Positions 49,216-53,246 of a stretch of 64,000 nt of DNA are shown here, piece after piece. Every line of letters starts with the position of its first letter. Positions within the stretch are counted from its first letter, which is position 1. A program made the translations under genes and the position numbers. This DNA is from an archaeon (GTDB lineage Archaea; Undinarchaeota; Undinarchaeia; Undinarchaeales; JBDRKL01): positions 1-64,000 of the forward strand of contig JBDRKL010000004.1 of the NCBI GenBank assembly GCA_043814055.1. The letters run 5' to 3'. Below the pieces are notes generated by a model, which searched no databases, was not told the DNA's origin, and saw only the letters and a program-made list of their open reading frames with translations.

Positions 49216-50259
49216 ATGGAAGTTCTGCAAGTTCTCAGGGAATCCACTGAAAAGAATATACTTCTTCTAGCGCACCACAACGCGGACCCTGATGCAGTGT
49301 GCAGCGCAATCGCGCTATCCGAAGGGCTCAAGCAAATCGGATGCAAAAGCGTAAGAATTGGATTTGTTGAGAGCATCAGCAAGCTTTCCCAGAAAATTGT
49401 TAACAAGCTTAATTATGAGATAGACCTGAACCCTAACCTGAACGCGGACTTGATTGTTCTTCTTGACACTTCAACAGCGGGCCAGCTCTCAAAAATGGCA
49501 GATAAGTTCAAGAGCGCAAAGGCAGAGAAAATTATCATAGACCACCACACTCCTACAGAGGAGCCGCTTGAGGCGGACCACAAGCTCGTTGACGAGAAAG
49601 CAAGCTCAACTGTTGAGCTTGTCTACGACCTGCTCAAGGAACTCGGTGTGGAAATTTCAAAAGAGGTTGCTGAAGCAATGTGCTTCGGCCTCGTCGCAGA
49701 GACAGCGCACCTGCAGTTCGCCACGCCAAAAGTTTTCAGGATTCTTGCCGATCTTCAGGAAAAGCACGGCATAGTGCATCAGGATATTCTTGAACTCCTT
49801 CGGACTCAAGTTGACGTGTCTGAAAAAATCGCGCACTTCAAGGCAGCGGGCCGGACAAACGTTACCCGCGTCAAGAACTATCTCATAGTCACAACACGCG
49901 TTGGCTCTTTTGAGGCCTCGTGCGCCCGTGCGTTAATGAGAATGGGTGCTGACCTTGCTGCGGTCTCGTCCAAGCCGGATGAGCTTCGCATAAGCATGCG
50001 CTCTTCGCATAGTTTCCTCACTGAAACCGGCATAGACCTTGGCAGGGACATAATGCCAGGGCTCATAAAAATCATAGACGGAACCGGAAGCGGTCACCCG
50101 ACAGCAGCAGGCGCCAACGGCAATGCGCTTGACAAGGAAAAGGAAGCGATGGCATTCATAGTTTCATTTGTCCAAAATAAACTGGAGAATCAGCACACGT
50201 TGCAAAGCAACGTGTGCGTGACAGCCGCTGATAAAAAGAAGGGAGTGGCTGGAAAATGA
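49216..50259 (+). CDS. DHH family phosphoesterase
   Basis: HHNADPDA, DTS, IDHH, GSGHPTAAG. Confidence 0.92.
   Translation: MEVLQVLRESTEKNILLLAHHNADPDAVCSAIALSEGLKQIGCKSVRIGFVESISKLSQKIVNKLNYEIDLNPNLNADLIVLLDTSTAGQLSKMADKFKSAKAEKIIIDHHTPTEEPLEADHKLVDEKASSTVELVYDLLKELGVEISKEVAEAMCFGLVAETAHLQFATPKVFRILADLQEKHGIVHQDILELLRTQVDVSEKIAHFKAAGRTNVTRVKNYLIVTTRVGSFEASCARALMRMGADLAAVSSKPDELRISMRSSHSFLTETGIDLGRDIMPGLIKIIDGTGSGHPTAAGANGNALDKEKEAMAFIVSFVQNKLENQHTLQSNVCVTAADKKKGVAGK
50187..50258 (+). repeat. Start-codon-associated hairpin element translated as the DHH C-terminal tail
   Basis: Perfect 11-bp hairpin gcacacgttgc-aaa-gcaacgtgtgc, then cagccgc-TGATAAAAAGAAGGGA-gtggctg before ATG. Confidence 0.7.
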
Positions 50260-50507
50260 ATCAACTAATCCAGGAAATCTGCGAGACCTTTGAAGACATA
50301 GCCTGTAGCGACGGCGTGCCGCGCAACATCAAGGACTGCGCTAAGAACATTTCCACAATAGTTGGCAACGATTCGGAGACCCTAAGCAGCAGAAAAGAGC
50401 GCGCCCTAACTTTGCTAACTGGCATGATTAATGATCCAAACATAGATACTCCGACCCAAATGTCGCTTTACAATGCGATGAGCGTCGTGGAGTCATTGGA
50501 CCTATAA
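50256..50507 (+). CDS. UPF0147 family protein
   Basis: D.VPRNIK..NDPNI motif. Confidence 0.85.
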   Translation: MNQLIQEICETFEDIACSDGVPRNIKDCAKNISTIVGNDSETLSSRKERALTLLTGMINDPNIDTPTQMSLYNAMSVVESLDL

Positions 50508-50561
50508 AACGAAAGAGAAAAACATATATAAGGCAAATGCGCCTAATACGGAATATAACCA

Positions 50562-51008
50562 ATGGGCATGATAGACAACATTTTTGGACCAAAGCACAAG
50601 GTGGCAAAAGCACACACCTCAGTTTCACGTGAACCAAAGTACGTGGAAGTTGATTGGAAGAGCCACGAGCAAGCAGCCAGGGAATACGTGCGAGTTGTGA
50701 ATCTCAATGATTTCGCAGACGTAGAGACTATCTTGGACGTTCTCCGAGAGAGAAACAGCATCGTAATCCTCAAGATCAAGCCAAGGCTTGTAGAGGAGAA
50801 GATGGAGCTCAAGCGCGCACTGAAGAGAATCCAGAGGACATGCCAGGCAATCGGTGGCGACATCGCGGGAATCAAGGAAGACATAATTGTGATAACCCCT
50901 CCGAATGTTGCAATCTGGCGCTCAGGCGAATCTGTAATAAGAAAGCCAATCGCTTCTGACGACGACGCTGACGTGCGAGTCTTCTCTGACGACGCTGACG
51001 CTGAGTAA
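50562..51008 (+). CDS. sepF: Cell division protein SepF
   Basis: IVILKI..GGDIAGI..IVITP. Confidence 0.88.
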   Translation: MGMIDNIFGPKHKVAKAHTSVSREPKYVEVDWKSHEQAAREYVRVVNLNDFADVETILDVLRERNSIVILKIKPRLVEEKMELKRALKRIQRTCQAIGGDIAGIKEDIIVITPPNVAIWRSGESVIRKPIASDDDADVRVFSDDADAE

Positions 51009-51042
51009 AGCTAATTTTAAGGTATGGAATTGTTTTGCTTAG

Positions 51043-51274
51043 CGACCTTTTTATTTGTTAATTTTGTGAAAAAAGCTCAGACGCGCAACAGCGCGTTGAG
51101 CAACCCGCTGTCGCGGGTTTGCTGGACCAAAAAGAAAATTGCTTCGCAATTTTGTGCGCCTTCGGCGCTACCTAAGTCTTATAGCTTCCAAGTTCTTCAT
51201 CGCGTAAGTATCCAAACTATACATCTGTGTGCAACCTTTTTCTGTGAAGTTTGTCAAAAAAGGTTGATCAAAAA
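51043..51274. repeat. Composite/nested palindromic repeat region
   Basis: Two CAACCTTTTT..AAAAAG-type units; nested hairpins at 51078-51122; aaaattgc-ttc-gcaatttt; gcgcc-ttc-ggcgc. Confidence 0.7.
51168..51226 (-). repeat. Duplicate of the aCPSF1 3' end (att-like), synonymously recoded
   Basis: 34 bp identical (51193-51226 vs 51361-51394), then 8 substitutions that are all silent. Confidence 0.9.
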
Positions 51275-51335
51275 CAAGGTGCCATAAGATATTTGTCAGG
51301 CAATGGCACTACCAATCAATTTGTTTTAATCCAAC

Positions 51336-53246
51336 TTATCTGAGCCGTATAGCCTCTAAATTCTTCATCGCGTAAGTATCCAAACTATACATCTTGTGAA
51401 GCGAGCTCGCCAGGTCAAGGCACTTTGTGTGGTCTCCGTGGACAACGAGCACGCGGTCCGGCTTCGGGTTTAAATTCCCGACAAACCTCATCAGCGAATT
51501 CCTGTCGCTGTGACCTGAGAATCCCTCTATGGTATCAACCTGCATTTTCACTTCAGTTATTTCCTGTTTGCCCTTCTGGTTTTCAATCGTTACCTTATCC
51601 CAACCCTTTTGTATTCTTTTACCCATCGAGCCCTCGGCTTGGTATGAAACAAAAACAAGATGGTTCTTCGGGTTATCAGCAAGGTGTCTTAAGTACTCAA
51701 CGCTCGGCCCGCCTGCGAGCATTCCAGAAGTTGCCAGTATGACCGCTGGCTCAGCGCTTTCTATGAGCGCCTTCCTCTCCTTCTGGCTTCCAATCCTCTT
51801 GAATATCGGTGACATGAATGGGTTCTGATCCTCGTGGAATATGAGCTGCCTCAGCCCCTTGGACAAGCACTCCGGATATGCGGTGTGTATCGCTGTCGCG
51901 TCCCATATCATCCCGTCAAGGTAAACGTGGATATCCTCTCGCTTGGTTCTGCGCGCCCACTTCTCCAGCACGATCATGACTTCCTGCGCCCTTCCAACAG
52001 CGAGCACAGGGATGAGCACCTTGGACTTGGTTCCTATCGCTTTTTCAATTATGCTGATGAGTTTTGCTTCCCCATCCCTTGCCGATGGTTGTATGTCGTT
52101 CTTGCCGCCATATGTGCTCTCCATTATGAGCGTTTCAAGCCGCATGAATTTTGAAGTCGCACCCTCAAAGAGGTTGGTTGGCTCGCATTTGATGTCGCCC
52201 GTGTATATGATATTGTGCAGACCCTCGCCGATGTGCAGGTGCACCTGCGAACTGCCAAGTATGTGCCCAGCGTTGTAAAGCGTCAGGCGAATATCTGAAG
52301 CAATGTCCGTAACCTCTCCATATTCAAGCGATATGCTGTGCTTAATTACTTCCTGGATTTCCTTGTTTGTGTACGGGACTTTCTTGCCCTCGCGTTGTGC
52401 AATGTCAACATAATCAAGCTGAAGCAAAGTCATTAAATCCCTCGTTGGAGCGGTACAATAAACAGGTCCGTCATATTCATATTTGTAAAGATAAGGCAGG
52501 AATCCGCTGTGGTCCAGGTGGGCGTGGCTTATAACAACTGCATCCAGGCTCTTAAGGTCAAACTCTGGAGCGTTCAGGTACGGGTAAGCGTTTGGCCCGT
52601 CTATCGCAACGTTCACGCCGCAGTCAAGCAGGACCTTGCTGTCCGGAGTTTGCACAAGATTGCAGCTCCTTCCAACTTCTCTTGAACCGCCAAGCGCAGA
52701 AATCCTAATCCACCGTGAATCATCACCCTCGGCGGAGTCCAGCATTGCACTTGGTTTCACTTTCTTCCCAAGCGACTCCAAGAACTTGCCCCTGTCGTCA
52801 AGGTTTGTGTAAAGAACATGCCGTATTGTCGTGATTATTTTTGAAGGAATTACAGGTGTTCTCTCAACGCGCGGAGACCACTTAATGTGTTTCTTTATCT
52901 CGTGCAGTGTCGTCCCATTCTTGCCTATGACAAGCCCTGGTTTCTTCGCCTCCACAATAACCCTGCTAGTGTTTTTTAAAAATGTAATCTCAGTAATCTC
53001 CGCCTCTTTCGGAACAAGCTCATTTATGACCTTCTTCGCAAGATCCTGGTCCACAAGAATTGACTCGTCTGCCCTCAGGTCAACGCGCTTCTTGTACTTG
53101 TCCACGAGCTTCTTTATTATCTCAGAGTGCTCGGCGAAATACTCCGGAATGGGTGTGTAAATAACGATGTTAGAGCCTTCCAGCCGTGCATCGCTTACCT
53201 CAGCGTCTTTTGGTAATTCCTTTTGTAATTCCTCTAAAAATGCCAT
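51336..53246 (-). CDS. fttA: beta-CASP ribonuclease aCPSF1 (FttA)
   Basis: KH domains, SHAHLDH, GHILGS, FSGHSD. Confidence 0.97.
   Translation of the reverse strand: MAFLEELQKELPKDAEVSDARLEGSNIVIYTPIPEYFAEHSEIIKKLVDKYKKRVDLRADESILVDQDLAKKVINELVPKEAEITEITFLKNTSRVIVEAKKPGLVIGKNGTTLHEIKKHIKWSPRVERTPVIPSKIITTIRHVLYTNLDDRGKFLESLGKKVKPSAMLDSAEGDDSRWIRISALGGSREVGRSCNLVQTPDSKVLLDCGVNVAIDGPNAYPYLNAPEFDLKSLDAVVISHAHLDHSGFLPYLYKYEYDGPVYCTAPTRDLMTLLQLDYVDIAQREGKKVPYTNKEIQEVIKHSISLEYGEVTDIASDIRLTLYNAGHILGSSQVHLHIGEGLHNIIYTGDIKCEPTNLFEGATSKFMRLETLIMESTYGGKNDIQPSARDGEAKLISIIEKAIGTKSKVLIPVLAVGRAQEVMIVLEKWARRTKREDIHVYLDGMIWDATAIHTAYPECLSKGLRQLIFHEDQNPFMSPIFKRIGSQKERKALIESAEPAVILATSGMLAGGPSVEYLRHLADNPKNHLVFVSYQAEGSMGKRIQKGWDKVTIENQKGKQEITEVKMQVDTIEGFSGHSDRNSLMRFVGNLNPKPDRVLVVHGDHTKCLDLASSLHKMYSLDTYAMKNLEAIRLR

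Follow-up and report, generated by a model that had tools for sequence, protein, structure and literature searches.

A silently recoded duplicate of the aCPSF1 gene end around a 109-nt insert in an Undinarchaeota genome

In the genome of an archaeon of the Undinarchaeota, the essential transcription-termination gene aCPSF1/FttA (51336..53246, minus strand) is followed by a second copy of its own 3' end. The coordinates refer to the window, i.e., the analysed stretch of 64,000 nucleotides at the start of contig JBDRKL010000004.1 (assembly GCA_043814055.1). The last 18 codons and the stop codon are present in the gene (51336-51394) and again 168 nt downstream on the same strand (51168-51226), and the stretch between the copies (51227-51335) is a non-coding insert of 109 nt. 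The evidence supports an insertion that supplied a replacement 3' end, which the gene now uses, while the displaced end lies just beyond the small insert. This role of an integrating insert had been proposed in a preliminary description of the DNA and is supported by the arrangement: tail 1 is in use, and tail 2 is found beyond the insert. Duplicated gene ends are usually read as attachment-site (att) scars of large integrase-bearing elements or as target-site duplications (TSDs). Here, the silent recoding provides a built-in clock and pedigree for the two ends brought together around the 109 nt. The silent recoding is the novel feature of this miniature, protein-less gene-end insertion, which is a member of a genome-wide family (about ten ends). 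Nothing in the literature searched describes cassettes of this kind from Undinarchaeota or DPANN archaea.

The two copies form a direct repeat of 58 nt (51169-51226 vs 51337-51394) with 88% identity and a start-to-start spacing of 168, which is the longest repeat of the region. Copy 2 was also recovered as a second match at 51171-51230 (E 8.4e-4). Read on the minus strand, both copies encode MYSLDTYAMKNLEAIRLR*. Copy 1 comprises an identical block of 34 nt inside the gene (51361..51394, minus strand), the likely recombination site, and tail 1 (51336..51360, minus strand), which contains the last 8 codons and the TAA now used by the gene and would have arrived with the insert. Copy 2 (51168..51226, minus strand) comprises the same block and tail 2 (8 codons, TAG), apparently the displaced original end; it begins exactly at the ATG. 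The 32-mer from this ATG onward occurs exactly twice in the window (0 expected, 100 shuffles) and exactly twice in the entire genome of 979,685 bases (0.98 Mb), a DPANN assembly that is 82% complete; together with the two preceding bases it makes up the 34-nt block. Beyond the block, the codons differ as AAT/AAC, TTA/TTG, GAG/GAA, CGG/AGA, CTC/CTT, AGA/AGG and TAA/TAG. These are 8 nucleotide changes in 7 of the 9 tail codons without any amino-acid change, so that 18/18 residues and the stop are kept. All these features (the duplicate end with the same peptide, the 34 identical bp, the 8 silent changes and the spacing of 168) had been claimed beforehand and are borne out by the repeat and by the comparison of translations. 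The replacement end thus preserves the reading frame and the protein. That the protein is unchanged is of consequence, as dimerisation of aCPSF1 depends on its last 12-13 residues and termination is abolished in vivo when they are deleted (PMC8716108), which makes a constraint on this end plausible.

Silent-only, clustered divergence of this kind is hardly obtained by chance and rules out that a non-coding copy decayed neutrally. Eight random substitutions placed anywhere in 57 nt were all silent in 0/400,000 simulated trials; with all of them restricted to the last 25 nt, a fraction of 5e-6 to 1e-5 of the trials was silent throughout. A clustering of the 8 changes within the last 25 of the 57 positions has a probability of 6.5e-4. 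The earlier claim that both ends were once under purifying selection therefore stands. Apart from one repeat unit, the non-coding stretches that follow the two stop codons cannot be aligned. Because a non-coding copy would change at all codon positions, yet the divergence is silent only and the stretches after the stops are unalignable, both tails must have been coding until recently, and presumably one or both did so in a different lineage or state.

The same facts bear on an in-place event, in which a staggered-cut target duplication, a tandem duplication or hairpin slippage would have copied the end, with divergence afterwards. A silent downstream copy should then change at all codon positions, but 8/8 changes are silent; a copy old enough for the post-stop stretches to become unalignable should have decayed as well. 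Furthermore, duplicated lengths of 23-105 nt across the genome do not fit a fixed stagger. Perfect or nearly perfect duplicates around similar cassettes are nevertheless found at C8:32625-32726 (46 nt, 100%), C4:75958-76151 (83 nt, 100%) and C10:138478-138654 (97%), where C with a number denotes a contig of the assembly, and they agree with in-place duplication. For the aCPSF1 end such an origin is improbable and disfavoured unless copy 2 is translated.

The insert consists of two parts and a short joint. After the TAA of tail 1 comes a unique spacer of 58 nt (51278..51335, minus strand) with a 7-bp hairpin (51303-51309/51279-51285), which runs into the first T5 tract of the adjoining repeat unit. 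In a BLAST search of the whole genome, its other matches were only 13 nt long. The repeat unit (51232..51277, plus strand) is composed of CAACCTTTTT, a 15-nt loop, AAAAAGGTTG and then ATCAAAAAC, and carries T5/T6 tracts on both strands. It is joined to copy 2 by CACAC (51227..51231, minus strand), as read from the sequence. In the gene, too, the identical block is preceded by CACA, though shifted by one base, and this position beside both block starts is a possible, weak case of microhomology.

The palindrome mentioned in the preliminary description is present, with 10-nt arms (51232-51241 and 51257-51266) that are 100% complementary and 15 nt apart. It is not peculiar to the element, being one of 19-31 copies of a lineage-specific 46-nt repeat unit distributed over the genome, while the 58-nt spacer occurs only here. 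With 2 mismatches allowed in its 18-nt right half, the unit (T5, hairpin, A5) has 31 near-exact genome copies; a looser pattern gave 19 exact matches and its reversed control gave 0. Many of the units lie directly behind, and on the same strand as, the 3' end of an ARAGORN-called tRNA gene or an end that resembles that of a tRNA or a C/D-box RNA. In 16 other genomes of the phylum, 0 or 1 copy was found in each (3/16 have one). The unit is probably a two-way terminator, judging by the T5-T6 tracts on both strands. The minus-strand RNA fold of 51150-51345 had a z-score of -2.29, with 5/200 shuffles equally good. Rfam gave only sR17 in 50000-52500 (16.8 bits, E 0.86, below the gathering score of 36), and a promoter and terminator scan of 50800-51600, which is of the bacterial type and not designed for archaea, returned 0 sites. 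The insert's only inverted repeat (51232-51266) lies at one side, not at both ends. A transposon or miniature inverted-repeat transposable element with a TSD was rejected, given the lack of terminal inverted repeats at both insert ends and differences that are not those of neutral decay.

Tandem arrangements of the repeat unit were noted elsewhere in the genome. Behind the genes of tRNA-Thr(cgt), tRNA-Thr(tgt) and tRNA-Ser(gga) stand 2-3 tandem T5-hairpin-A5 units (C8:32558-32730; C10:138406-138654; C10:117204-117410). For tRNA-Thr(cgt) and tRNA-Ser(gga), the final 7-8 bases of the tRNA are found again in every unit. On C13 (16956-17231), a sequence resembling a tRNA 3' half and ending in CCA occurs twice, with no ARAGORN tRNA call there. 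The program yields only 23 tRNA genes in the whole genome; none was found within the window.

The newcomer appears to be tail 1 with the 109 nt, and tail 2 the displaced resident end. This assignment follows from the position of copy 2, from the short spacers of relatives and, weakly, from codon usage. Copy 2 adjoins a terminator region with hairpins and T tracts (51009..51167), which is common to aCPSF1 and the convergent SepF gene (50562..51008, plus strand; Pfam SepF 1.3e-12) and contains two small hairpins and a second repeat unit with a nested double hairpin. The latter (51070-51138) has 90% identity to C12:37700-37767. What follows tail 1 and what follows tail 2 have the same construction, with one or more hairpins and then a repeat unit in the same orientation. 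The spacer between SepF and aCPSF1 measures 327 nt here vs 37-113 nt in 9/9 order-level relatives, in all of which SepF is convergent. The relatives compared have short spacers and at most 72% protein identity; in none of the 28 with a complete gene end was this end duplicated within about 1.5 kb (for one of them, within 533 nt). Larger islands at this site, which had been suggested earlier, were likewise found in 0/28. In 5 of the 6 differing sense codons, tail 1 has the synonym that is rarer in the genome and copy 2 the commoner one, which is weak evidence. Outgroup codons for the ancestral tail were saturated and uninformative.

Judging by sequence, the incoming end probably came from a fairly close lineage, since both copies share the lineage-specific residues M1, M9 and A14, whereas A or K, P, and T or I, respectively, prevail at these positions in the relatives compared. 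The block itself is identical to relatives' sequences at only 9-21 of 30 positions, so its identity in the two copies does not reflect general nucleotide conservation.

The aCPSF1 end is one of several in this genome. The last 25 residues of 1,645 open reading frames (ORFs) of at least 100 aa were compared with the 800 nt downstream of each; the largest score among random pairings was 41. Among the best 25 matches, duplicated 3' ends reaching the stop codon were found for archease (score 117), SecD (115), aCPSF1 (96), a TP_methylase protein (69), DUF63 (58), a fused primase (54), PheS (51) and a GCD14-like tRNA methyltransferase (45). The remaining matches, which were left out, were tandem paralogues (on C3, at C7:107526 and at C4:88495), an antisense mirror ORF of archease, a pair resembling a diversity-generating retroelement (DGR), and low-complexity or dissimilar matches scoring 46 or less. 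The eight 3' ends and two 5' ends have a common layout of gene end, small hairpin cassette or cargo, and second gene end. Nine pairwise comparisons at the eight 3' ends gave 40 silent differing codons (stop to stop counted) and 15 residue-changing ones. The identical blocks range from 9+15 to 34 nt, and the inserts between copies are hairpin cassettes of 53-123 nt, except at SecD, where cargo genes (0.56 and about 0.9 kb) are found instead; larger versions of the insert therefore exist. In PheS, the last codon and the stop, which come after 23 identical bases, are recoded. For aCPSF1, archease and DUF63, the copies cease to be similar at the stop codon, as expected if non-coding homology decayed between lineages while selection held the coding part. 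At SecD, 2 of the 3 copies share six more bases past the stop, and the same bases end the GNAT genes that converge on SecD. The two 5' ends show a similar picture. In GAPDH, the ribosome-binding site and the first 11 codons are duplicated with 5 silent differences and 1 replacing difference (counted by hand). The second is an exact 83-nt duplicate at C4:75958-76151, which includes the ribosome-binding site and the first 17 codons of a minus-strand gene and surrounds a T-rich insert of 28 nt.

Two members of the family have a more complex structure. The SecD 3' end is present three times at C13:29621-31290, with a GNAT acetyltransferase gene and an opposite-strand ORF of 271 aa without known family between the copies. 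The third copy is followed by a second GNAT-like gene, and each of the two GNAT genes stops 1 nt past a copy of the SecD end. The region resembles a tandem stack of modules, each made of a SecD end and a convergent gene. At C13:25884-26064, the last 8 codons of the GCD14-like methyltransferase gene occur three times in a 74-nt tandem unit and are recoded almost only silently.

The origin that fits the aCPSF1 locus best is a cassette that came with a gene end from a diverged lineage, recombined in the 34-nt block and pushed the resident tail downstream; we give this about an even chance. Its separate elements (the two-lineage origin, the identity of the incoming tail and the recombination route) are proposed from one genome. 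The incoming DNA would have carried its own copy of the gene end, which had drifted at silent sites while coding in the other lineage. The crossover would have taken place inside the 34-nt block, the only long stretch of identity, as such exchange requires identity of sufficient length. This could have happened by single-crossover (Campbell-type) insertion of a circular or ends-in fragment. Alternatively, a template switch to foreign homologous DNA and back during repair or replication might have produced the same arrangement, with CACA as a weak candidate for the return microhomology. In either case, the gene would gain tail 1 together with a new T-tract terminator, and the resident tail 2 would be displaced downstream. 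The exact duplicates elsewhere may be first insertions made in place, and the recoded ones may be later transfers between lineages.

Several points weigh against this origin. The contrast between the block, where 0 of the 8 codons with synonyms differ, and the tail, where 7 of 9 do, is extreme; either an identity block must have been selected at the crossover, or homogenisation must have followed later. A double-stranded circle of 168 bp is physically awkward as an intermediate. The direction of codon usage is weak and mixed across the family, copy 2 looking more native at aCPSF1, archease, DUF63 and TP_methylase and copy 1 at SecD. No donor, empty site or free form (an attP-like copy) was found in the viral, metagenome or genome collections. 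RNA-derived contigs give no cover of 51108-51375, so the junctions are without read-level support: in three RNA runs of one study, one contig of 250 nt is identical to 51779-52028 inside the gene and another partly fits 51451-51485. As to enzymes, none dedicated to the insertion was identified in the 82%-complete genome.

The preliminary description had instead placed an att site here, with an element reduced to about 110 bp. In this explanation, a virus or plasmid with a tyrosine integrase would have integrated through an attP that mimics the aCPSF1 end, and deletion would later have left 109 nt between attL and attR, as in the cis-mobilizable elements (CIMEs) described below. The order of gene, repeat, insert and repeat fits such an event, since the insert stands between direct repeats, one of them overlapping the end of the gene. 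Silent recoding also fits an attP whose core was kept at the nucleotide level and the remainder only at the protein level, and the SecD array with its cargo resembles tandem accretion at an att site. Archaeal elements do use the 3'-distal parts of protein genes: in a survey of Thaumarchaeota, this holds for 14 of 68 integrated elements, some of which supply a new stop codon (PMC6563490). The att site as described was not confirmed: no integrase, attP or larger island was found, and inserts of 60-110 nt between duplicated gene ends are usual in this genome, so a large ancestor is unnecessary. In particular, no tyrosine integrase (PF00589, PF16795, Xer-type included) was detected in the 82%-complete genome, whose incompleteness limits this absence, and the Pfam matches of neighbouring genes include no mobile-element gene and no site-specific recombinase. 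The core 24-mer of the block had 0 matches in viral contigs and 0 in metagenome contigs, and the attP beside an integrase that had been predicted was not found in the genome or viral contigs. A protein-guided scan found no aCPSF1 end fragment in viral contigs, one locus with 50% identity in metagenome contigs, and ten distant loci in genome contigs (at most 60% identity where the whole query was covered; otherwise only a short part matched). In addition, eight gene ends would demand eight site specificities, the identical blocks vary in length, and the palindrome of the insert is a host-wide repeat. An integrase-mediated element is therefore considered unlikely, despite the flanking repeats and the kept protein.

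Concatenation of the alleles of two co-occurring strains during assembly would also join two ends that differ only silently, as strain alleles naturally do. It needs, however, a real junction from the cassette end to the block start, the two sides of which share only about 4 bases. Exact contig-end overlaps of 87-141 nt point to de Bruijn assembly with a large k, for which a 34-nt repeat is unambiguous. Moreover, perfect duplicates around hairpin cassettes at analogous loci could not result from strain mixing. An artefact of this kind has very little probability. The overlaps themselves are C4:1-87/C7:1-87, C10:149292-149432/C9:1-141 and C10:1-133/C2:25680-25812, and several contigs could probably be joined through them. 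Other contig ends match at 84-91% (C4 end/C8 end; C6 start/C7 end), which suggests repeats or a second related population.

Copy 2 might also be functional, either as a mini-ORF of 18 codons that encodes the dimerisation tail or by serving as template for an antisense RNA of the plus strand that would end, like tRNAs of this genome, at the repeat unit. Its start at an ATG, with AAAGG 9 nt upstream, agrees with the former, and the plus-strand repeat unit directly after the antisense of copy 2, as behind tRNA and small-RNA 3' ends, agrees with the latter; a like arrangement exists at DUF63. Against both stand the lack of a recognised promoter, of an Rfam family at the gathering score and of a start codon at the start of the other duplicated ends, and an antisense role would not favour silent changes. 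The regions upstream of tRNA genes, examined in connection with the antisense RNA, gave no usable promoter consensus. We consider a function of copy 2 highly improbable. A bulge-helix-bulge intron excising the 168-nt unit was rejected, as the only 4-bp inverted repeat of the block gives cuts 11 nt out of register (by hand).

Some known systems resemble the proposed insertion of a cassette with its own gene end. According to the Thaumarchaeota survey, the elements there have direct repeats, one of them over a gene 3' end, supply the end and stop in use, and form arrays by re-use of the site, but they are kilobases long, encode integrases or casposases and have generally short att or TSD repeats (PMC6563490). 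The insert described here measures 109 nt and is protein-less, its 58-nt repeat has a silently recoded half, and the assembly contains no integrase. In Streptococcus thermophilus, CIMEs are integrase-less, att-flanked elements at the fda 3' end beside the integrative and conjugative elements (ICEs) ICESt1 and ICESt3. They are likewise short integrase-less inserts bounded by two copies of a protein gene end; unlike the archaeal case, with no known parent and ten gene ends, they go back to known ICEs whose integrase and site have been established. The 178-bp repeats (rtT) distal to tyrT of E. coli each end with a tRNA-Tyr 3' end. These tandem units also re-copy the upstream gene end and the terminator region, but they belong to a tRNA gene of a bacterium and offer no coding constraint to read.

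In DGRs, a second copy of a gene 3' end likewise lies a short distance downstream as the template repeat (TR) of a variable repeat (VR). The differences there occur at template adenines and change the protein, whereas all differences at aCPSF1 are silent. A DGR was rejected for this locus: A stands at only 3 of the 8 differing positions in either copy, and the 82%-complete genome yielded no match to the reverse transcriptase family PF00078. A pair with the VR/TR pattern of differences was observed elsewhere in the window, at a gene (42635-43318, plus strand) that encodes an ORF of 227 aa without a Pfam match between the RNase P p30 and Pop5 genes. The 3' end of this gene (43183-43305) has a downstream copy (43491-43604, plus strand) with A where the gene has G or T (AAC vs GGC, GAC, TAC) and with a 9-nt indel; the genome search for a reverse transcriptase was negative, as stated.

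The insert at aCPSF1 is thus small, protein-less and hairpin-bearing; the gene stays intact, and its duplicated end, which extends to the stop, borders the insert on either side. A wider proposal, which we put forward tentatively and consider rather doubtful, is that protein-less cassettes spread between diverged lineages without an integrase, each carrying a protein-preserving end of the essential gene that it interrupts (self-patching) and entering by a short identity block. If so, even genes such as FttA, PheS, primase and SecD could be invaded without harm, and the cassettes would represent a way of moving DNA that has not been described and would document gene flow in uncultured archaea. 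They would also provide a testable handle on DNA movement among DPANN archaea and on the tolerance of insertions at essential genes of compact genomes. For annotation, it should be kept in mind that the spacer behind aCPSF1 holds a decoy gene end and a terminator-like repeat unit.

The aCPSF1 gene encodes an ORF of 636 aa with KH, metallo-beta-lactamase, beta-CASP and RMMBL domains (Pfam matches Beta-Casp 9.6e-32, KH_TffA 8.1e-19 and RMMBL 1.5e-17). According to Pfam, it belongs to the conserved archaeal exosome/proteasome gene cluster. The gene order is proteasome alpha, SBDS, Rrp4, Rrp41, Rrp42, L37ae, Pcc1, prefoldin, a DHH protein and UPF0147, continued by SepF converging on aCPSF1 and then by proteasome beta and enolase. 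Two inverted-repeat pairs of 48-72 nt with 87-90% identity were noted in other parts of the window (28956-29027/50191-50260 and 24812-24859/41826-41873). The second of them belongs to a dispersed hairpin repeat family that is also present on C8, C12 and C7.

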